From Phenylobacterium sp. (GTDB taxonomy: Bacteria > Pseudomonadota > Alphaproteobacteria > Caulobacterales > Caulobacteraceae): a DNA stretch of 64,000 nucleotides. Below, piece after piece: positions 4,826-55,811 of the stretch. The translations under genes and the position numbers were made by a program. The stretch lies in the NCBI RefSeq assembly GCF_030697305.1, contig NZ_JAUYQL010000038.1, positions 23,531 through 87,530 on the forward strand. The letters are read 5' to 3'. Within the stretch, counting starts at the first letter, position 1, and every line of letters starts with the position of its first letter. Below the pieces are notes generated by a model. It had not been told where the DNA came from and did not search any database. It worked only from the letters and a program-made list of their open reading frames with translations.

Positions 4826-5743
4826 TCAGGGTCGCGCGGGGACCTTGCCCGGCCAGGTCAGGAAGCCGTTCCCGTCGAGGCCGGCCGCGCCGGGGCTGGC
4901 GACGCAGCAGGGGCCGCGCACGCTGCTGCGGCTCTCGTAGACCGCGCCGCCGCTGCTGTAGCTGCGATGGGTCTCGGATTCCGAGTAGCTCTCCGAACGG
5001 CTGCGCTCGCCGTAGACGCCGCCGGCGGTGCGGCCGGACTCCTGCTGGTAATAGCTATGGCCGCCGGAATAGCGGTCAGGCGTCGGCAGGCGCGGAGTCT
5101 CGTCGCGATAGCGGACCGGCGGCGGAGCCGGACGCTCGTCCCTATAGCGCGCGGGCGGCGGCGGCGGCGCGTAGCGGCGACGGCCGTCCTCGAACCACTG
5201 GCCGTCGTCAGCCGGCGCGGCGCGCTCGTAGCGGCGTTCCTGGGATTGGCCGCGATAGGCGTGGCCGTCCTGATAGCGGCGATCGGAGTAGACCTCGTCG
5301 CGCTCCTGGAACGACGGGCCGCCATAGATCCGGACGCCGGAGTCGCGACGATCGTCATAGCGGCGCTCTTCGTAACGGCCGCCGCGATCGTCGAAACGCT
5401 CGCGCGGCGGCGGGCCGCCAGCCAGGTCGTCATGGTCGCGCTGCTCGGCGCGGCGGTATTCGTAGCGCCCGGCAGGCGCGGCGTAGGCGGTGTGACGGAC
5501 CGTTGAGCGCTTCGTCGCCGTAGCCTTGCCCGTGCGGCGGGCGACCGCCTTGTGGGCGCTGGCCTTATGGCCCCCACTCGCCTTGGCGGTCTGCGGCAGG
5601 CAGGCCGGCGTCGGCGGGCAGGCGGTCGCGGGCATAGTCGCCGGCAGCGGCGCACGCGCGGCGACACCACTTTTCGAAGCCGGTTGATCGCAGGCCGCGA
5701 GAGCCAGAAGTGCGGCGAAGGGTAGGACGAGACGGAGGCGCAT
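4826..5743 (-). CDS. Hypothetical low-complexity lipoprotein (Arg/Tyr/Asp/Ser/Pro-rich)
   Basis: Lipobox LAAC at residues 15-18 after a hydrophobic stretch; 305-aa ORF filling the intergenic space. Confidence 0.7.
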   Translation of the reverse strand: MRLRLVLPFAALLALAACDQPASKSGVAARAPLPATMPATACPPTPACLPQTAKASGGHKASAHKAVARRTGKATATKRSTVRHTAYAAPAGRYEYRRAEQRDHDDLAGGPPPRERFDDRGGRYEERRYDDRRDSGVRIYGGPSFQERDEVYSDRRYQDGHAYRGQSQERRYERAAPADDGQWFEDGRRRYAPPPPPARYRDERPAPPPVRYRDETPRLPTPDRYSGGHSYYQQESGRTAGGVYGERSRSESYSESETHRSYSSGGAVYESRSSVRGPCCVASPGAAGLDGNGFLTWPGKVPARP

Positions 5744-5778
5744 GAAGAATTCCGGACGCGTCTGTTGAAACCAAAACC

Positions 5779-6612
5779 CTAATTGCAGGATGCCGAGCCG
5801 TTAACGCTGTAGGTTTCACCCGTTGCGCGAAGAAATTCTTCGACCAACTCGTCGTAGAGGTCCAGGCGCTTGTATTGGCGGAACTGTGGCGTGGCGCTTC
5901 GCCAAGCCTTGGCGAAGCCCGCGAGACGTGGCGGGTCGGCCAGCAACGCGGCCAGCGGCTCCAGCGATACGCGGATGGTGAACACTGCGCCGCCCGTCCG
6001 CGGCAGACGGCGCACGGTCTGGCGCTCAACGCGTATCCGCAGTTCCCGCTCCACATCGGCGGGCGCCAGATCGGCGATCCGCGCGCGCATCGGCGCGGGG
6101 TCGGGCGCGAACAGTTCCGGCGAATTGACCAGGGTCCAGTTGCGGCGCTCCAGCACGACGTTGGGACGCAGGGCGTCGAACACCCTTTGCACGCGGGCCA
6201 GGAACCGATCGCCGAAGCCCGGCACCGGCCCGTGCAATGCGGCCAGGGAGCGGCCGAGCGCTTCGCCGGCGGTGAAGAAGGTCGGGGCCGACAGGCTGAG
6301 CGCGGTCAGCCGCCAGGCGCCGTCCGTCTTCTCCATCAGGCAAAGGTCGTCGGCCACCCGTCGAGCGGCGGCGTACAGCGGCGGCAGGGCGCCGGGCGGC
6401 GGCTGCGCGCCCAGGGCCGCGTCGACCAGCGTGGCGACCTCCTCCTGGCCATCGCGCGACCCTTCGATTTCGCCCCAGACGAGATCGCGGCGGCCGGCGA
6501 ACAGCGGGTCCTTTCGCAACCAGGGCGCCGCCTCCCCGCCCTGCAGCCACGCCGAGGCAGGGATAGGGCGCAGGCCGATGGCGAAGTCCGCGGCCTGTTC
6601 CCAAGGGCTCAT
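5779..6612 (-). CDS. DUF3445 / heme-dependent oxidative N-demethylase alpha-subunit family protein
   Basis: 'DDLCLM', 'LG.SL..LHGPVP', 'R.NW', 'LRIRVERQT.RRLP.TG..VFTIR'; start ATG 6612 coupled to VanZ stop. Confidence 0.8.
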   Translation of the reverse strand: MSPWEQAADFAIGLRPIPASAWLQGGEAAPWLRKDPLFAGRRDLVWGEIEGSRDGQEEVATLVDAALGAQPPPGALPPLYAAARRVADDLCLMEKTDGAWRLTALSLSAPTFFTAGEALGRSLAALHGPVPGFGDRFLARVQRVFDALRPNVVLERRNWTLVNSPELFAPDPAPMRARIADLAPADVERELRIRVERQTVRRLPRTGGAVFTIRVSLEPLAALLADPPRLAGFAKAWRSATPQFRQYKRLDLYDELVEEFLRATGETYSVNGSASCN

Positions 6613-6980
6613 GGGCGACGCCGCAAGATCACGGCCAGCGCCGCAGCCACGGCCACGCCGATGATGTTGGCCAGCATGTCGCGCCAGTCGCCGTCGCGGC
6701 CGAACCCCATGGTCGCCTGCAACACCTCGATGCCGGCGCCGAGCACCAGCATCGCCCCCACGAGGCGCCTGCAACGGGTTGGATAGAGAGCCAGGCCGAG
6801 GGCGGTGATCGTCAGGTAGGCGATGGCGTGCTCCGCCTTGTCCCAGAACCGCGCCAGGCCTGGCACGTCCTCGCCCGGCGCGAGCGAGGCCCACAGCAGG
6901 GCGGCGATCGCAGTCCCGAAGATCGCGGCCTTAAGCGCGGACGGCCAGCGCCAGGGATGCAGGAGAAGGGACGGGGGCAT
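6609..6980 (-). CDS. VanZ-like membrane protein
   Basis: 'DKAEH..AY', 'GAGIEVLQ', 'GRDGDWRDMLAN..G'. Confidence 0.8.
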   Translation of the reverse strand: MPPSLLLHPWRWPSALKAAIFGTAIAALLWASLAPGEDVPGLARFWDKAEHAIAYLTITALGLALYPTRCRRLVGAMLVLGAGIEVLQATMGFGRDGDWRDMLANIIGVAVAAALAVILRRRP

Positions 6981-18814: not shown

Positions 18815-18942
18815 GACGGCTCCTTGCGCTCAAGCGCGATTACACCGGCGGAGCGCCTGCACGCAATGCGTCGCGCCGCACGCGGGCGTCGGGCCGCCGC
18901 CGAGGACGCCTTTTTCAGGCGCAGGACGGCGTCAACCTAATC

Positions 18943-18962
18943 ATATAAGGATTTCTTTATAT
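18943..18962. promoter_or_regulatory. Probable SahR operator upstream of ahcY
   Basis: AT-rich 20-bp near-palindrome ATATAAGGATTTCTTTATAT (16/20 self-complementary) just upstream of TTGCCC-N17-TATAGA (18969-18997). Confidence 0.7.
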
Positions 18963-19032
18963 GTTTCCTTGCCCATGGCGGCCGGGCTGGCTATAGAGCC
19001 GGCCACCAGACATTCGCCGACAAGGACCCGTC

Positions 19033-33020: not shown

Positions 33021-33039
33021 AACGAAGTCCTTGGTTCTT

Positions 33040-34548
33040 TTAGGGTTTCTTGAATGGATTGAGGCCGGGCAAACCGCCCAGCCCGGGGAGTTTCGGTGCG
33101 CCGCCGCCCAGCCCGGGCAGGCTGGGTGCAGAGGGATCTGAGGTCGGCAGCTTGCCGCCGCCCATCGCTTGCAGGCGGGCCATGTCGCCGCCGCCGCCAG
33201 CGCCGCCCATGCCCATCGCGCCGGCCATGCGCGCGAAGCCCTTGCCGCCGTCGCGGCTCATCATCTTGAAGGCGTCGGCCATCTGACGGTGCTGCTTCAG
33301 CAGGCGGTTGACCTCGGAGACCTCGACGCCCGCGCCGGCGGCGATGCGGCGCTTGCGCGACGCCTGGAGGATGTCGGGCTTGCGGCGCTCGGCCTTGGTC
33401 ATCGACGAGATGATCGCCGCCTGACGGTCCAGCGACTTGTCGGAGATGTTGGCTTCGGCGATCTGCTTCTTGATCTTCTGCACGCCGGGCAGGAAGCCCA
33501 TCAGTCCCTGCATGCCGCCCATCTTCTTCATCTGGGCGAACTGCTCGGCCATCATGTCGAGGTCGAACTGGCCCTTCGCCAGCCGCTTGGCCAGCGCCTC
33601 GGCCTTGGCCTGGTCGACGTCCTGGACGGCGCGCTCGACCAGCGCCACCACGTCGCCCTGGCCCAGGATGCGGCCTGCGACGCGGCGGGCGTCGAACACG
33701 TCCAGGCCGTCGATCTTCTCCGACACGCCGAGGAACTTGATCGGCAGGCCGGTGACCGCGCGCATCGACAGCGCCGCGCCGCCGCGCCCGTCGCCGTCGG
33801 CGCGGGTCAGCACCAGGCCGGTGAGCGGCAGGCGTTCGTGGAACGCCTTCGCGGTGCGGACCGCGTCCTGGCCGGTCAAGCTGTCGGCGACCAACAGGGT
33901 TTCGGACGGATTGCCGATGCGGGCGATCTCGGCGGCTTCCGCCATCATCGCCTCGTCGAGCGTGGTGCGCCCGGCGGTGTCGAGGATCAGGACATCGAAG
34001 CCCTGAAGCTTGGCGGCCTGCAGCGCGCGGCGCGCGATGTCCGGCGCCGACTGGCCGGCGACGATCGGCAGGCTGTCGACGCCCGCCTGGGTCGCCAGCA
34101 TGGCGAGTTGCTGCATGGCGGCGGGACGTCGGGTGTCCAGCGAGGCCAGGAGGACCTTCTTGCGGTCCTTGGAAAGCTTCAGGGCGAGCTTGCCGGCGGT
34201 CGTGGTCTTGCCCGAGCCCTGCAGGCCGGCCATCAGGATGACGCTTGGCGGGTTGAGCGAGAGGTTCAGGTCCTCCGTCGCGTCGCCGCCCAGCATCTCC
34301 ACCAGGCCGTCGTAGGTGATCTTGACCACCTGGTCGGCCGGACGCACCGAGCGGATGACGTTCTCGCCGCTGGCGCGCTCCTTGGCCTTGGCGATGAAGT
34401 CGCGGACCACCGGCAGAGCGACGTCGGCCTCGAGCAAGGCGACGCGGACTTCACGCAGCACCTCGTCGATGTCCTTGTCCGACAGCACGCCGCGCCCCGA
34501 GAGGCGGTCGAACACCCCCGTCAGCCGCTCTGTCAGTCCGTCGAACAT
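33040..34548 (-). CDS. ffh: Signal recognition particle protein
   Basis: '[10 protein letters not shown]', 'DTAGR', 'DGD.RGGAALS', M domain 'II.SMT..ER'. Confidence 0.97.
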
Positions 34549-35109: not shown

Positions 35110-35152
35110 CACAACCTCCCGTCATTTTGCGTGGAGGTTATTGCTTGTTTGA

Positions 35153-35167
35153 GAACAAAACAAGTAC
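35153..35167. promoter_or_regulatory. Probable alphaproteobacterial LexA (SOS) box
   Basis: GAAC-AAAACAA-GTAC, one mismatch to GAAC-N7-GAAC, 44 bp upstream of the VOC start. Confidence 0.6.
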
Positions 35168-35182
35168 GAAGGCGCTCGCGCG

Positions 35183-39900: not shown

Positions 39901-40002
39901 CTCACTCGGTCTCCTTGAACTATGTCAGGGCAGGACGCCCCGTCGGGACTGGAGATAGGGACCGTGGACCGAAAGTACCAATTGATTGAATTTGCATTTT
40001 AG

Positions 40003-40017
40003 ATAGATAATTTCTAT
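40003..40017. promoter_or_regulatory. OxyR binding site in ahpC/oxyR divergon
   Basis: Exact ATAG-N7-CTAT (ATAGATAATTTCTAT) in an AT-rich gap. Confidence 0.75.
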
Positions 40018-40063
40018 CTTCTGAGAAGCGCGCCAACGCTGGCGCGCTTGGAACGACGCCGCG

Positions 40064-41014: not shown

Positions 41015-41506
41015 GTGATCCGATCATCGATCAGCCTGGCCGCAGCGGCCCTCGTCCTGGGCGGCTGCGTGGGCATGTCGCGCAGCGAGACCGTGTCGCC
41101 GTTGTCCGACAACTGGGCGAGGAGCGGACGCATCGAGACGATCGCCCTGACCAAGGGCGACATCAAGGTGACCCCAGAGTTCGACGAGATCTTCAAGAGC
41201 CGGGTCAAATCCAAGCTCGACGCCTGCGCCAAGGGACCAACGCCTTTGACGCTGGAGGTCGCTCTCGATCGGCTGGACAAGGCGAACCCCGTGCTGACCA
41301 CGGTGGTCGCCGGCGCGAACGTCCTGCGCGGTCAGGCCCGGCTGGTGAACCCGGCGACCGGCGCTGTCGTCGCCGACTACAAGATCGGCAAGACCATCGT
41401 CGGCGGCCGCTTCGCCATCGTGGTGATGGGCCAGGCCGAGGAGCAGCTCTCCGACGCGTTCGGCGACGAGCTTTGCAAGCAGGCGTTCCTGCCGACCGAA
41501 AAATAG
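41015..41506 (+). CDS. Hypothetical lipoprotein (DUF4410-like)
   Basis: GGAG RBS + GTG; lipobox LGGC; alpha/beta periplasmic-type sequence. Confidence 0.6.
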   Translation: MIRSSISLAAAALVLGGCVGMSRSETVSPLSDNWARSGRIETIALTKGDIKVTPEFDEIFKSRVKSKLDACAKGPTPLTLEVALDRLDKANPVLTTVVAGANVLRGQARLVNPATGAVVADYKIGKTIVGGRFAIVVMGQAEEQLSDAFGDELCKQAFLPTEK

Positions 41507-41507
41507 T

Positions 41508-41568
41508 TTCGATATATCTATTGTGATCCGATCCAACTTCGATATATCTGCGCAATCGACATATCGAA
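41508..41568. promoter_or_regulatory. Triple operator-like repeat upstream of PadR gene
   Basis: TTCGATATATCT at 41508-41519 and 41538-41549 (exact), plus inverted TCGACATATCGAA 41556-41568. Confidence 0.65.
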
Positions 41569-41581
41569 ACAGGATCTATTT

Positions 41582-42157
41582 ATGCGCGGACTCTTTCATA
41601 ACCACCATCGCCGCGAACGCTTCGGCCGCGGCCCGTTCGGCGGCCATATGGGCGGCGGACACAGAGGCGGCCATCCCGGCCGCCACGGCGGATCGCGGAT
41701 CGGCCGCTTCCTCGAGCACGGCGATCTTCGCTTCGTGCTGTTGGCGCTGATCGCGGAGCAGCCGCGACACGGCTACGACCTGATCCGCGAACTGGAGACC
41801 CGAACCGGCGGCGCCTACCGGCCAAGCCCTGGCGTGGTCTACCCCACCCTGTCGCTGCTCGACGACGAGGGCTTCATCCAGCCATCCGCCGGCGACACCG
41901 CGCGCAAGCTGTTCGAGATCACGCCGGCCGGCCGCGAGGCGCTCGAGCGTGAAGGCCCGGCCGTGAAGGCGGTGTTCGCCCGCATGGCGGAAGCTGCGGC
42001 CCAATCCGACCAGACCGGCCCGCGGGTCCGCCGAGCCATGGAGAACCTCGGATCCTCCCTGCGCATCCGGCTGTCCCAGGGCGCCGTCACCGAGGCTCAG
42101 GTGGACGCCATAGCCCGCGCCATCGACGAGGCCGCCGCCGCCATCGAGCGGGTCTGA
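41582..42157 (+). CDS. PadR-family regulator, YqjI-like, with His/Gly-rich N-terminus
   Basis: 'GDLRFVLL.LI.E.PRHGY.LI', 'Y.PSPGVVYPTL..L.DEG'. Confidence 0.88.
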   Translation: MRGLFHNHHRRERFGRGPFGGHMGGGHRGGHPGRHGGSRIGRFLEHGDLRFVLLALIAEQPRHGYDLIRELETRTGGAYRPSPGVVYPTLSLLDDEGFIQPSAGDTARKLFEITPAGREALEREGPAVKAVFARMAEAAAQSDQTGPRVRRAMENLGSSLRIRLSQGAVTEAQVDAIARAIDEAAAAIERV

Positions 42158-48456: not shown

Positions 48457-49539
48457 TCAGTAACCCCCGCCGCGCGCCGTCGGCTCAGCGCCGACACGGG
48501 GTGAAGCGTCGATGGCCTGGGCGATGATCCGCAGCGCGTCGTCCACATCGCGCTCGGTGATGTCCAGATAGAAGACCGCGCGTATCGCATCCGCCCCGGA
48601 GGGCAGCATCCACAACCCGCGTTGATGCGCCTGATCGACCACGCTGCCCGCGGCGACATCGGTCAGCCGATAGCGGACGATGTTCGACTGCACGCTCGCC
48701 GGGTCGATCTCGATTCCGTCGATCTGCGCGAGGCCCTGGGCGAACCGAGCGGCGAGTGCGTGGGTCTCGCCCAGCCGCGGGCGATGGTGCTCCAGGGCAT
48801 GCAGAGCGCCCGCCGCGACCAGACCCGCCTGGCGAAAGCCGCCGCCGAACATCTGCTTGAAGCGACGCGCCCGGCTGACGAAATCCGCAGGTCCCACCAG
48901 GCAGGAGCCCATGGGCGCGCCAAGCGCCTTCGACATGCAGACGCTCACCGTGTCGAACGATCGCGCATAGTCCGCCTCGGACACGCCGGTCGCGGCCGTC
49001 GCATGCCATAGGCGCGCGCCGTCGAGGTGGGTCGCCAGCCCGTGTCGCCGACCCGCCGCCGTCGCCGCCTCCAAGGCTTCGAGCGGCCAGATCGAGCCGC
49101 CGCCGTTGTTGTGGGTGTTCTCCAGGCACAGCAGGCGCGCCGGAGCGGTCACGGTCGTCGGGAAGAAGCGGTGCGGAACCCCGATCACGGCGTCGACGTC
49201 GGCGGGCGTGAAGATCCCTCTGACGCCGGGAAGCGGCCTGGGCAGCACGCCGGAGAACGCCGCCACGCCGCCGTTCTCCAGGACGTAGACGTGGGCGGCC
49301 TGGTCGAACAGCACGGCGTCGCCCGGCTGGGTATGGGTGCGCACGGCGACCTGGTTGGTCATCGTGCCGCTGGGCATGTAGACGGCGTCTTCCTTGCCCA
49401 GGATGTCGGCCACCGCCGCCTCCAGCGCCTTGACCGTCGGATCGTCGCCATAGACGTCGTCACCGACCTCGGCGTAGGCCATCACCCGTCGCATTTCGGG
49501 CGTAGGACGGCTGCAGGTGTCGCTACGCAGGTCGATCAT
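48457..49539 (-). CDS. ltaE: Low-specificity L-threonine aldolase
   Basis: 'DLRSDT...P', 'GDDVYGDDPTV..LE', 'SGTM.N', 'HLDGARLW', 'CMSKALGAP.GS'. Confidence 0.9.
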   Translation of the reverse strand: MIDLRSDTCSRPTPEMRRVMAYAEVGDDVYGDDPTVKALEAAVADILGKEDAVYMPSGTMTNQVAVRTHTQPGDAVLFDQAAHVYVLENGGVAAFSGVLPRPLPGVRGIFTPADVDAVIGVPHRFFPTTVTAPARLLCLENTHNNGGGSIWPLEALEAATAAGRRHGLATHLDGARLWHATAATGVSEADYARSFDTVSVCMSKALGAPMGSCLVGPADFVSRARRFKQMFGGGFRQAGLVAAGALHALEHHRPRLGETHALAARFAQGLAQIDGIEIDPASVQSNIVRYRLTDVAAGSVVDQAHQRGLWMLPSGADAIRAVFYLDITERDVDDALRIIAQAIDASPRVGAEPTARGGGY

Positions 49540-49599
49540 CGCACGCCCCCCGTTCGGGCCCAAGCGGGCCTCGGCGAGGCGCAATCTAGCGCGCCGACG

Positions 49600-50763
49600 T
49601 CACGAAGACAGGGCTATCAACTCAGGCTGCGGTCCGACATAGCGCGCCCGGGGTCGGATCAGCACGCCGGCGGCGCCCTGTTCCAGGGCGTGGGCGATCC
49701 AGCCGGCGACGCGGGCAGTGGCGAACAGGGCGAACGGGGCGTCGGCGGGGGCGGAGATCGCCTGGGTCATCGCCGCGAGGGCGAAGTCGATGTTGGGCGC
49801 TGCGCCCGTCGCCTCGTGCACGGCCGCGCTGAGGGACTGGGCCGCCGCGGCCGGCGTGAACCGTCCGAGCAGTGCGAGGGCGCGAGGATCGCCGTCCGGA
49901 TACAGCGGATGGCCGAAGCCTGGGATCGGCCGGCCCTCGGCGAGGCGCGCGGCGACCGCCACCTGCGCGCCGTCCCGCGCCGCATCGGCCAGCAGGGCGG
50001 CGACGCCGGCCGCAGCCCCACCATGCAGAGGTCCGGTAAGGGTCGCCAGGCCCGCCAGCGCGCAGGCGGCCAGAGACGCGCCGGTGGACGCCGCCACCCG
50101 CGCGGCGAACGTCGAGGCGTTGAACTCGTGGTCCGCCAGCAACACCAGAGCGCGACGGATCAGATCGGCGCCGTTGGCGTCTACGCCCCAAGCGACCGCC
50201 AGCCGCAGATGGATCGCGCCGCCGCCGGAAACGCCGGCGACGGCTTCGGACACGGCGTCCAGCAGATCTTCCGCCTCGAGGCCCAAGGCCGCGGCCTGTC
50301 GACCCAGCGCCGGTCGGTCACTCGCCGCCCGGCTTGCAAGCAGGCTGAACGCGCGCGCCTTCAGTGCTCCCGCCGGCATCGCCTGAAGAGGCCTGGGCTG
50401 ACATGGGTGCGATTGGGCGCTCCACAGCAGACGCGCGACGGCCTCCAGGGTCTCGGTTTCGGCCAACACCGCCGCATCACGTCCGCGGTAGAACAGCCGT
50501 CCGCCCACGATCGTGGTGATCGCCGAGTCCATCACGGGCTCGCCCCAGGCGATGGCCCCGGCCGCGACCTCCGACCGCTTGCGCCCGCGCGTGCGGCGTT
50601 CGATCAGCGCCGCGAGATCCACCGCGCGATAGAGGCTGCGCCGCGGATCGTCGGGATCGGCGCGCACCTGCACGCGACCGCGGCTGACATAGGCGTAGAG
50701 CGTCTGCGGCCGGACGCCGAGGCGTTCGATGGCGGCCTGCGCGGTGATCCACTCGTCTGACAT
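49600..50763 (-). CDS. HTH_17/excisionase-type DNA-binding domain fused to citrate-synthase domain
   Basis: N-terminal 'WITAQAAIERLGVRPQTLYAYVSRG' wHTH; CS motifs 'DHEFNASTF', 'GPLHGGA', 'GFGHPLY..GDPR', 'NIDF'. Confidence 0.88.
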   Translation of the reverse strand: MSDEWITAQAAIERLGVRPQTLYAYVSRGRVQVRADPDDPRRSLYRAVDLAALIERRTRGRKRSEVAAGAIAWGEPVMDSAITTIVGGRLFYRGRDAAVLAETETLEAVARLLWSAQSHPCQPRPLQAMPAGALKARAFSLLASRAASDRPALGRQAAALGLEAEDLLDAVSEAVAGVSGGGAIHLRLAVAWGVDANGADLIRRALVLLADHEFNASTFAARVAASTGASLAACALAGLATLTGPLHGGAAAGVAALLADAARDGAQVAVAARLAEGRPIPGFGHPLYPDGDPRALALLGRFTPAAAAQSLSAAVHEATGAAPNIDFALAAMTQAISAPADAPFALFATARVAGWIAHALEQGAAGVLIRPRARYVGPQPELIALSS

Positions 50764-50786
50764 TGATTATATTGATCAAGATTGAC
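50762..50786. promoter_or_regulatory. Phased direct repeats (candidate operator) in the CS divergon
   Basis: ATTGAT 50762-67, ATTGAT 50771-76, ATTGAC 50781-86; also TTGAT-N7-ATCAA dyad. Confidence 0.6.
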
Positions 50787-50838
50787 TAGGTGATCGTGCG
50801 ACAGATGATGACCGGGCGCAAGCAAGAAGGAGCCCGCA

Positions 50839-51918
50839 ATGTCCGAAGGCCTCGACGACGTCATCGCCGCCCGCACCATCCTGTCGGACGTGGATGGCGC
50901 GGCCGGGCGGCTGGTGATCCGCGGACACTCGCTCGACGACCTGGCCGGCCGCGCCCGGTTCGAGCACGTCGCCCATCTGCTATTCGAGGGCTTCTTCGAT
51001 GATCTTCCGCGCGACCTGCAGCGACCGCTGGGAGAGGCGCGGGCCGCGGTGTTCGCCCAGGCTGCCGCCGTCGGCGAGCTCAGGGGACTGGATCCCGTGG
51101 AGGCGATGCGGGCACTGAGCGCACGGCTGCCCGACGGAGACGATCTCGCCACTGCGCTGAGGCTGCTGGCCGCACCTGGGGTGTTCACCGCCGCCGTGCT
51201 GCGCGCCCGCGCCGGCGCCGCCCCGATCGCGCCTGACCCTTCCCTGAGCCACGCCGCCGACATCTTGAGGATGACCCACGGCCGGCCCGCTGGTCCCGGC
51301 CAGGCCGAGGCGCTGGACGCCTATCTGGTGACCGTCTGCGACCACGGACTGAACGCCTCGACCTTCGCCGCCAGGGTGATCGCCTCGACGCACGCGGGCC
51401 TGACCTCGGCGGTGCTGGGCGGGATCAGCGCGCTCAAAGGTCCGCTGCATGGCGGCGCGCCGGGCCCGGTGCTGGAGATGCTGCGCGAGATCGGAGAGCC
51501 GGCGAACGCCCGCCCGTGGCTTGAGGCGGCGCTGGCGCGCGGCGAGCGCCTGATGGGTTTCGGACACCGGATCTACCGGCTGCGCGACCCCAGGGCCGAT
51601 GCGCTGAAGGCGGCCGTGCGCAGGCTGGGCGCGCTGCAACCGGACGCGTCAGGCCGTATCGCCCTGGCCGAAGCGGTGGAGGCCGCGGCGCTGGCGATCC
51701 TCAAAGAACGCAAGCCCGACCGGCCGCTGGAGACCAACGTCGAGTTCTACACCGCCCTACTGCTGGAGGCGGTCGGCTTCCCGGCGGACGCCTTCACCGG
51801 CGTATTCGCCATGGGGCGGGTGGCGGGCTGGATCGCCCACGCCCGCGAACAGGTGGCGCAGGGCCGGCTGATCCGTCCGCAGTCGGTCTATGTCGGTCCG
51901 CAGCCGAAGGCCGCCTGA
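50839..51918 (+). CDS. Citrate/2-methylcitrate synthase-like paralogue
   Basis: 'GLDDVIAA.T.LS.VDG..G.L..RG', 'DHGLNASTF', 'GPLHGGA', 'GFGHRIY...DPR', 'NVEFY'; AAGGAG RBS. Confidence 0.9.
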   Translation: MSEGLDDVIAARTILSDVDGAAGRLVIRGHSLDDLAGRARFEHVAHLLFEGFFDDLPRDLQRPLGEARAAVFAQAAAVGELRGLDPVEAMRALSARLPDGDDLATALRLLAAPGVFTAAVLRARAGAAPIAPDPSLSHAADILRMTHGRPAGPGQAEALDAYLVTVCDHGLNASTFAARVIASTHAGLTSAVLGGISALKGPLHGGAPGPVLEMLREIGEPANARPWLEAALARGERLMGFGHRIYRLRDPRADALKAAVRRLGALQPDASGRIALAEAVEAAALAILKERKPDRPLETNVEFYTALLLEAVGFPADAFTGVFAMGRVAGWIAHAREQVAQGRLIRPQSVYVGPQPKAA

Positions 51919-51921
51919 AAC

Positions 51922-52902
51922 TCAGGCTTCCGGCACCTCGACGACGCCTGCGCCGCCGGCCTCGTCGCCCCAGGCGAGGCGGCGGTGGTCGGCGGTGATA
52001 GCCAACGCAGAGATCGCCGCGCCCTTCTCAGCCTTGACCGTGTCGATGCGCCGCCCGGTGAGGTCGCAGACCCACACCCGTCCGTCGTCCAGCCCGGCGG
52101 CCGCCCAGGTGGCCCCAGGCGTCGCAGCGGCGCGGGTCACCAGGGCGGATTCGTCAAAGCCGATCTCGGCCGCCTCCTTGCCCATCGGCCCGGTGGAGCC
52201 GCCGAACGGCCAGATCACCAGGCCGTTGGCCCCGGAGGTGACCATCAATTGTCCCTTGGAGCAGAACGCCAGGCTGCGGACCTTGGCCGGGTAGCCGCCC
52301 ATTCGCATGTTCTTCTCGTCGGAGACCCGCCAGCCGTGGAGCTGGTTCTCCTGCATGGACGAGATCAGGAACTTGCCGTCCGGGCTCCAGGCCGCGCCGA
52401 TATGGCTGCCGGCCCAGTTCAGCACCGCCGGCTTCTGTTCGGCGATCCGCGCGTACCACAGGCGCAGGCAGTTGTAGGTCGCCGCCGCCACCCGCCGGCC
52501 CTTGGGGTCGAAGGCGACGTCGGCGATGGACCGCTCGTGCGGGAAAAGTCTGGTGAAGCCTGCGTCGGCGACGTCGCGCATGTGCAGGTCGCGGCCCGCG
52601 GCGAAGGCGATCAGGCCCGACTGGGCGCTCGCCGCGACCACATCGATCCAGCGGCCCTTCACCTCGGCGATCTGTTCGGCGCCGCTCGGCCGCGACCAGA
52701 CCACACGGCCGTCGTCGCCGCCGGTGAGCATCCCGTCGCCCGACGGATGCAGGCAGGCTGACAGTATGGCGCCGTCGTGCGCCTGGACGCTCTCGCCGCC
52801 CTCGAAACGGACGGTCCCGTCGCCCAGGGCGAAACAGGCGCGCTGGGCGCGGTCGAAGGCGGCGGCGGTGACGAAGGCTTCGAATTCAGAGATCATCGCC
52901 AT
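51922..52902 (-). CDS. WD40-repeat beta-propeller protein
   Basis: Repeated 'L.GGDDG.V..', 'AFDP.G', 'WSPDG..L', 'G.DDG.VW'; start may be ATG 52896. Confidence 0.82.
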   Translation of the reverse strand: MAMISEFEAFVTAAAFDRAQRACFALGDGTVRFEGGESVQAHDGAILSACLHPSGDGMLTGGDDGRVVWSRPSGAEQIAEVKGRWIDVVAASAQSGLIAFAAGRDLHMRDVADAGFTRLFPHERSIADVAFDPKGRRVAAATYNCLRLWYARIAEQKPAVLNWAGSHIGAAWSPDGKFLISSMQENQLHGWRVSDEKNMRMGGYPAKVRSLAFCSKGQLMVTSGANGLVIWPFGGSTGPMGKEAAEIGFDESALVTRAAATPGATWAAAGLDDGRVWVCDLTGRRIDTVKAEKGAAISALAITADHRRLAWGDEAGGAGVVEVPEA

Positions 52903-52983
52903 GCCATAGCCGGGCCTTCAGGGGCTTTCCAGGGCGCCGACGCACGGCGCGAACCCCGCCGGGGCGATCTGGTCTTTACTTTC

Positions 52984-53010
52984 TGAAAATGACTTGCGAA
53001 TGGTCTCGCG
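52984..53010. promoter_or_regulatory. Possible Fur box upstream of exbD
   Basis: TGAAAAT-G-ACTTGCG (7-1-7) overlapping TGCGAAT-G-GTCTCGCG; AT-rich relative to context. Confidence 0.4.
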
Positions 53011-55739: not shown

Positions 55740-55811
55740 ACCGCGCTCTCGCCCGTGGGACCGCTCACGGGCGCAATACTTTTTGCAATTACATTCTGTA
55801 AGGCGCGAACG

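Follow-up and report, generated by a model that had tools for sequence, protein, structure and literature searches.

A divergent gene pair and the element between its genes

The DNA analysed here (the window) is a stretch of 64,000 nucleotides of Phenylobacterium sp. (contig NZ_JAUYQL010000038.1, positions 23,531 to 87,530), derived from a groundwater metagenome, and our subject is a short AT-rich element that it carries between two divergently oriented genes. The gene on the minus strand (49600..50763) encodes a protein of 387 aa in which a winged helix-turn-helix (HTH) domain at residues 5-58 is followed by a disordered basic linker at 60-75 and by a citrate synthase (CS) fold from residue 83 to the end. 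This fusion protein is called HTH-CS in what follows. Its divergent partner on the plus strand (50839..51918) is a full-length citrate synthase of 359 aa, the open reading frame (ORF) of which starts 75 bp from that of HTH-CS. Judged by its matches to Pfam Citrate_synt (E 9e-96) and to NCBIfam PRK12350 (455 bits, cutoff 332), the partner is a bona fide citrate synthase.

The plus strand of the window reads CATTGATTATATTGATCAAGATTGACTAGG at positions 50761-50790. An earlier reading of this DNA, made from the sequence alone (the sequence-only reading), had drawn attention to an AT-rich island here with two copies of ATTGAT and one of ATTGAC, and to a TTGAT-N7-ATCAA dyad, and all of these are present. 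The two ATTGAT copies begin at 50762 and 50771 and the ATTGAC copy at 50781, so that successive repeats are 9 and 10 bp apart, and the dyad is made up of TTGAT at 50763-67 and ATCAA at 50775-79. The 30-mer has a GC content of 0.30, where the window as a whole averages 0.69, and no more than 78 of its 63,971 30-mers are equally AT-rich. ATTGAY as such is not enriched, with 22 matches in the window against 23 expected; three of these 22 lie within 25 bp, and when the same 30-mer was shuffled, three phased identical 5-mers arose in 9 of 200,000 trials. The core element of 25 bp occupies 50762..50786, and its minus-strand sequence is GTCAATCTTGATCAATATAATCAAT. Even with 3 mismatches allowed, this is the sole match of the full 25-bp pattern in the window. 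Positions within the element are numbered p1-p25, the window coordinate being 50787 - p.

The element reaches into the start codon of one gene and the probable -35 of the other. The minus-strand HTH-CS ORF starts with the codon seen as CAT at 50761-63, and the element overlaps this ATG by 2 nt. On its other side lies a putative promoter of the partner CS gene (50782..50809, plus strand), with a -35 hexamer TTGACT at 50782-87, a 16-bp spacer and a -10 hexamer GATGAT at 50804-09. It is the sole sigma-70-like site between 50500 and 51100, where 0.1 would be expected. The Shine-Dalgarno sequence of the partner, GGAG, is read from the sequence at 50829..50832 on the plus strand, 6 nt before the ATG.

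Conservation and architecture of the element

Eighty genomic loci encoding relatives of HTH-CS with 39-91% identity were fetched from Alpha-, Beta- and Gammaproteobacteria, Acidobacteriota, Chloroflexota, Binatia and others; counts of 81 include the window. A locus was scored as carrying the element when at least 14 of the 17 specified positions matched, and most loci matched at 16-17. The pattern RTCAAT-N-TTGAY-N7-RTCAAY, on the strand of the fusion gene, stands upstream of nearly every HTH-CS gene: it precedes the HTH-CS start in 76 of the 81 loci, with the consensus RTCAAT-c-TTGAT-N7(6)-ATCAAY-AT. In the window the corresponding sequence on this strand is GTCAATCTTGATCAATATAATCAatg. Information content is about 2 bits per position at p2-5 (TCAA), p8-11 (TTGA) and p21-24 (TCAA), the three cores reaching 1.9-2, 1.8-2 and 2 bits, respectively. 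Single positions outside the cores (p7 C, p15 A, p20 A and p27 T) still hold 1.1-1.6 bits, and the DNA flanking the element holds approximately none. The 549 kb of loci contain only nine other weak matches, eight of which are the same site on the opposite strand and one of which lies elsewhere, in the locus L051.

The association was also approached from the motif. Metagenome contigs were scanned for exact RTCAATCTTGAT-N7-ATCAAY without reference to genes, which returned at least 120 matches, 118 of them evaluable. Among the matches listed, 99 of the 118 are followed within 130 nt, and in the right orientation, by the N-terminus of an HTH-CS protein, while 17 of the other 19 span open frames of at least 111 aa (14 of them more than 200 aa), as is expected for chance matches in coding sequence. 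Positions that the search had left unspecified, namely p14 A, p15 A, p19 R, p26 A and p27 T, are conserved when the 93 unique positives are compared, p27 T with 1.4 bits, and the negatives show no such conservation. Element and gene thus predict each other, and the element is a conserved cis-signal tied exclusively to HTH-CS genes across phyla.

Three half-sites and a spacer make up the element, all named here as they read on the minus strand of the window. Half-site I, GTCAAT (ATTGAC on the plus strand), at 50781..50786, overlaps the -35 of the CS promoter. Half-site II, TTGAT (plus-strand ATCAA), at 50775..50779, is near-invariant and is inverted with respect to I and III. Half-site III, ATCAAT (plus-strand ATTGAT), lies at 50762..50767, and it ends with the first two bases, A and T, of the fusion ATG. 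I and III are family-wide direct repeats, 19 bp apart and 18 bp apart in some lineages. Between II and III is an AT-rich spacer, CAATATA at 50768..50774, which measures 7 bp in 67 loci (6 bp in the other 9), and in which the surveyed loci and the matches of the motif scan, two independent sets, agree in conserving p14 A, p15 A and p19 R.

The middle of the element can be read in two ways in the window, where the plus strand also contains the middle ATTGAT at 50771..50776 (ATCAAT at p11-16 on the minus strand). Both readings, direct and inverted, are available here because the sequence involved, TTGATCAA, is a palindrome, and the direct one is lineage-specific. At p13, 34 of the sequences have C and 28 have T, the AA at p14-15 is partly conserved, and what is invariant in the middle region is TTGAT on the fusion strand (window 50775-79), the half-site that forms the dyad with half-site III. 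The dyad of the sequence-only reading has therefore been borne out across the family. Its other proposal, an array of three helically phased direct repeats, describes the window correctly and fits the outer two repeats across the family, but the middle repeat, ATCAA[TGC], is found in only 16 of 53 unique motifs, or about a third. TTGAT-N7-ATCAA is better conserved than the three-repeat array. The pairs p13/p19, p14/p18 and p15/p17 show no palindromic covariation beyond column frequencies. A structure in RNA was set aside as an explanation, as the conservation is sequence-specific and without covariation and the possible stem has only 5 bp.

The position of the element relative to the partner is consistent across loci. 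Read towards the partner, half-site I becomes TTGAC(G/T), a -35 core, and the partner ATG follows 45-59 nt from the element. At three loci (L059, L065 and L077) it is 30-31 nt, a spacing that fits TTGAYN-17-(-10)-6/7-ATG and would suit a leaderless CS mRNA. The fixed distance to the partner ATG, together with these three loci of leaderless type, supports the -35 role of half-site I, and from this assignment the centre of the element would lie near -43 of the partner promoter. Overlap of the repeats with the fusion ATG and with the likely -35 of the CS gene, as the sequence-only reading had it, thus holds in the promoter scan of the window and in the distances across loci.

On the side of the fusion gene the distance is less uniform, the end of the element lying 0-84 nt from the ATG. 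Because the element abuts the start codon (within 4 nt) in 31 of the 76 loci, and because 30 of the 41 longer leaders are without a Shine-Dalgarno sequence, the fusion mRNA is probably leaderless or nearly so, beginning at about the end of half-site III. The spacer at 50768..50774 may hold the -10 of such a leaderless or short-leader transcript. Candidate -35 positions at TTGATY (p8-13), at the upstream TTGAC and at p-10..-5 were tried and rejected, as none gave a consistent pair fitting the start codons that abut the element. Contigs from RNA runs for related Variovorax and Caulobacter loci were fragmentary, with 90-95% identity, and none extended across the intergenic region.

A divergent CS gene is immediately upstream in 53 of the 80 related loci, and the element is kept with the fusion gene where the divergent partner is not CS. 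In its place are found a family III CoA-transferase (Burkholderiales, Rubricella), an HMGL-like enzyme (Ktedonobacter), a member of the PEP-mutase/ICL family (Dyella) or an unrelated gene. Most of the non-CS partners named here act on acyl-CoA or on C4-C6 acids, which fits a sensor with a CS fold. Loci with no adjacent CS gene include L040, L050, L052, L054-L057, L060-L062, L064 and L071, often with the family III CoA-transferase, and further non-CS partners lie at L066:1550-2851 and L058:1881-2885. In the window itself a threonine-aldolase-like ORF (48457-49584, minus strand) starts 15 nt after the fusion stop and may be co-transcribed with the fusion gene. This ORF and the one at 51922..52902 were considered as parts of the module and rejected, since the conservation of both is limited to the closest relative (L001). 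This 69% GC window has further short AT-rich islands (30-mers with GC of at most 0.34) at 18929-18976, 33031-33060, 35134-35170, 39968-40030, 41492-41584, 52966-53004 and 55771-55805.

The HTH-CS protein and its relatives

Closest to the HTH-CS of the window are proteins of Phenylobacterium with up to 91% identity, and the fusion family has 1,170 representatives at E below 1e-30. Among the 150 best clusters (50% identity) about 20 are the exception; the others align from residue 20 or so, or earlier, and thus include the HTH. In the window protein residues 5-57 form an HTH_17-like segment (E 4e-4). Among 39 diverse members taken for the family alignment, 33 match HTH_17 (best E 8.6e-12), 21 match MerR and 20 match MerR_1. 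The helix LGVxxxTLYAYVSRG is nearly invariant in this alignment, and the near-invariance of the recognition helix TLYAYVSRG matches the invariance of the DNA half-sites. The C-terminal part matches Citrate_synt of Pfam with E 1.7e-56 (best stretch 194-372), while its best NCBIfam citrate-synthase match, at 152.8 bits, is far below the cutoff of 421.3. Histidines H212, H247 and H285 are near-invariant in the 39 members, R294, R351 and R370/R372 are invariant, and D325 is kept in most.

The AlphaFold2 (AF2) model of the whole protein (pLDDT, the model's own confidence score, 90.7) contains the HTH, the disordered linker and a complete CS fold, and the N-terminal domain modelled in isolation has a pLDDT of 89.8. 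The winged HTH is laid out as b5-7, a8-15, a19-27, b33-35, b43-46 and a47-58 (b, strand; a, helix). Its best PDB matches by fold are the Xis of Pukovnik (4j2n, TM 0.66/0.75) and BldC (6ama/6amk, TM 0.61-0.76), followed by SoxR, RacA and HiNmlR; the probability of these matches is about 1.0 with E of only 0.065 or weaker, as is usual for a domain of some 55 residues. Sequence searches of the PDB with the HTH gave only non-significant matches. The assignment to the Xis/BldC family made by the sequence-only reading is upheld in the form of an Xis/BldC/MerR-like fold, on the strength of the model matches and of HTH_17 in the family.

Some variants of the element stand beside changes in the protein. 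An extra TTGAC abuts half-site I, giving the palindrome TTGACGTCAA, in L015, L020, L022, L027, L028, L032, L034, L037, L041, L042, L044 and L048, and in most loci with this addition N or S replaces the second Y of TLYAYVSRG. In L069 and L080 a variant element, GTCAATCTTAAAtcaacgtGTTAAC (TTAAA...GTTAAC), lies about 25 nt before the fusion ATG, with symmetric G-to-A and C-to-T changes in half-sites II and III, and the recognition helix of these two is TLYVYVSRG instead of TLYAYVSRG. As a DNA variant and a helix variant in a single lineage, this is only a hint of covariation between protein and DNA. In Paraburkholderia an additional ATATTGAT is found downstream of the element.

For the sensor domain the closest solved fold is that of CitA of Mycobacterium tuberculosis, the best match of the whole model (30% identity, E 1e-14), and the catalytic His/His/Asp and the substrate Arg are largely kept. 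Unlike CitA-type enzymes, the fusion falls below the NCBIfam CS cutoffs, has a diverged N-terminal part of the CS domain and carries the HTH. Members of the MerR family such as MerR, SoxR and CueR share a related winged HTH, as the MerR and MerR_1 matches and the appearance of SoxR and HiNmlR among the fold matches indicate, and the half-site spacing of TTGAT-N7-ATCAA is typical of classical MerR proteins. HTH-CS differs from them in having neither the coiled-coil dimerisation helix nor the C-terminal metal or drug pocket, the AF2 model passing from the helix at 47-58 through the disordered residues 60-75 into the CS fold. Also unlike the MerR arrangement, the dyad does not lie in a 19-20-bp spacer between -35 and -10; its place is upstream of the -35 and over it, in a promoter whose spacer measures 16-18 bp.

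By analogy only, the domain organisation recalls regulators of the MocR type, such as GabR and PdxR, in which a winged HTH is joined by a flexible linker to a complete dimeric enzyme fold that acts as the sensor. GabR and PdxR have a divergent metabolic partner and an operator of mixed direct and inverted repeats, and combine autorepression with ligand-dependent control of the partner. They differ from HTH-CS in possessing a GntR HTH rather than one that is HTH_17/MerR-like, a fold-type I aminotransferase rather than a citrate synthase, and a different DNA motif. Our search of the literature found no paper describing an HTH-citrate-synthase regulator or this motif.

Probable function of the element and its meaning

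We think it likely that the HTH-CS protein has its cognate operator in this island, beside its own gene, and acts as a one-component regulator whose sensor is the CS fold; it would repress its own gene and control the divergent partner. The N-terminal Xis/BldC/MerR-like winged HTH would recognise the TCAA/TTGA half-sites, and the C-terminal CS-fold domain would dimerise and sense a ligand of central metabolism, most likely oxaloacetate, an acyl-CoA or citrate. With three strong half-sites in forward, reverse and forward orientation (RTCAAT, TTGAT and ATCAAY) around an AT-rich spacer, each site would probably take up at least two HTHs; for instance, a CS-type dimer might sit on the TTGAT-N7-ATCAA dyad, with a further subunit on RTCAAT. 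Such an operator would reach from the -35 of the partner to the start codon of the regulator gene and probably to its transcription start. Since it spans both starts, its occupancy should shut off the regulator gene, in negative autoregulation, and control the partner. For the partner we judge repression relieved by ligand to be most likely, the alternative being activation from about -43. That autorepression is combined with control of the partner is plausible from this geometry. Binding, stoichiometry, the sign of regulation and the nature of the ligand are thus all matters that we infer from the element, its position and the folds.

Certain observations weigh against such an operator. The centres of half-sites I and II are only 6 bp apart, so that two HTHs would not easily fit on one face of the DNA. 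Two Caulobacterales metagenome-assembled genomes (L023 and L024) encode a typical HTH and have no element within 250 nt upstream and no divergent CS gene. In L051 the element is not before the fusion gene and sits elsewhere. The HTH_17 score of the window protein, 21 bits, is below the Pfam cutoff of 27. For the fusion gene itself no convincing -35/-10 pair was found, nor a conserved -35 in the flanks, so that the proposal that the element covers this gene's own promoter is drawn from its closeness to the ATG. As regards L051 (Pseudomonas sp. NA-150), the best copy of the element there, GTCAATcaagTTGATtatattaATCAATAT, lies at 4950-5015, about 800 bp downstream of the fusion gene, with a gap of 4 nt instead of 1 between half-sites I and II. 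It precedes an amidase-like ORF (5013..6626) and may mark a further member of the regulon.

The alternative that fares best is a strict BldC or Xis mode of binding, in which direct repeats 9-10 bp apart are occupied head-to-tail by at least three HTH protomers and the inverted TTGAT has no role of its own. The fold of the HTH speaks for it, being closest to Xis (of lambda and Pukovnik) and BldC, with the same beta-alpha-alpha-beta-beta-alpha winged HTH. The targets of BldC and Xis are AT-rich repeats about one helical turn apart, and at least two of the half-sites here are direct repeats. Three RTCAAY repeats at 10 and 9 bp are present in the window and in many Alphaproteobacteria, and a longer unit, T-R-R-TCAA-Y-n-T, can be read three times, the T at p-1, p9, p18 and p27 being partly conserved. 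The repeats that BldC occupies head-to-tail are direct and 9 bp long (AATTxxxxC); classical MerR proteins, by contrast, are symmetric dimers on palindromic sites (PMC5859096). Against this mode stand the fate of the middle repeat, the C of which is kept in about half of the loci, and the invariant TTG at p8-10, which direct repeats leave unexplained. BldC and Xis are moreover stand-alone domains of 55-70 aa that oligomerise head-to-tail, whereas HTH-CS has 387 aa with a CS fold of about 310 aa, and its target has a TCAA core in which the best conserved middle half-site is inverted. Citrate synthase domains normally form dimers with two-fold symmetry, and this too counts against purely head-to-tail binding. 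We regard the strict BldC/Xis mode as a serious but rather unlikely competitor of the operator outlined above.

It might also be supposed that nothing other than core promoter and translation-start signals has been conserved, that is, the -35 of the partner, the AT-rich -10 or start of a leaderless fusion mRNA and an AU-rich landing site for the ribosome. TTGAC does stand at a fixed distance from the partner ATG, the element does abut a start codon without a Shine-Dalgarno sequence in many loci, and the AT-rich spacer has a weak -10-like consensus (CAATAT/TAATAT). Yet promoter hexamers are not normally invariant across phyla, the three copies of a 4-5-bp core in fixed arrangement at about 2 bits are the signature of a specific DNA-binding protein, and the element is kept in the absence of a CS partner and with the ATG 26-84 nt away. 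That these signals account for the element by themselves is therefore improbable, while promoter and operator roles are not mutually exclusive.

A site for a global regulator of the CRP/FNR (FixK) family is suggested by the half-site sequence, which is the same as that of the FNR/FixK box consensus TTGAT-N4-ATCAA. The spacing in the loci is N7 or N6 and never N4, a third half-site is present, the element follows one gene family across phyla, and it occurs just once in the 64-kb window, so that we give this explanation very little credence. Least probable of all is an att-type site for recombination or excision served by an Xis-like directionality factor of a mobile element, since in spite of an HTH resembling phage Xis, and of Xis proteins binding phased direct repeats, an HTH joined to the fold of a metabolic enzyme, metabolic genes as partners and a chromosomal locus with synteny across a family all speak against it, and inspection of the neighbours brought no conspicuous recombinase or integrase ORF to light, integrase genes not having been searched for specifically.

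Caulobacter, a model organism, carries the same kind of gene pair. In C. vibrioides a CS of 361 aa and an HTH-CS of 383 aa are divergently encoded around a 75-bp intergenic region (L201:2426-2500), in which the 25-mer is identical to that of the window and lies 4 nt before the ATG. This identity of the DNA is accompanied by only about 60-62% identity between the Caulobacter fusion proteins and that of the window. A published study of the citrate synthases of Caulobacter reported exactly two extra CS-like genes, the adjacent citB and citC, of which citB complements E. coli gltA and citC does not, and in the parts of that report considered here CitC is treated as a putative citrate synthase, with no mention of an HTH or a regulatory role (PMC7083601). 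It would follow from the arrangement that citC is the HTH-CS gene of C. crescentus (citB/citC being CCNA_03757/03758), and the 25-mer very probably lies between citB and citC, in the same divergent pair of CS and HTH-CS as in the window.

For the family as a whole we lean towards the view that HTH-CS proteins constitute a large unrecognised family of transcription factors, with at least 150 clusters at 50% identity from Proteobacteria to Chloroflexota. They would employ a whole and possibly catalytic CS fold as the sensor and an Xis/BldC-type winged HTH to read a nearly universal operator of 27 bp, and so couple the state of oxaloacetate or acyl-CoA to genes for a second CS, a CoA-transferase or a lyase. 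If this is true, Caulobacter CitC would be the first genetically studied member of the family, and the failure of citC to complement a citrate-synthase mutant would be explained. An abundant family now annotated as 'citrate synthase (family protein)' would gain a DNA site and a probable function, and citrate synthase would join the short list of whole-enzyme folds that have been reused as sensors of transcription factors. The near-invariant operator would offer a testable system, in a model organism, for the control of a back-up citrate synthase by a metabolite, and the element might perhaps be of use as a part for metabolite biosensors.

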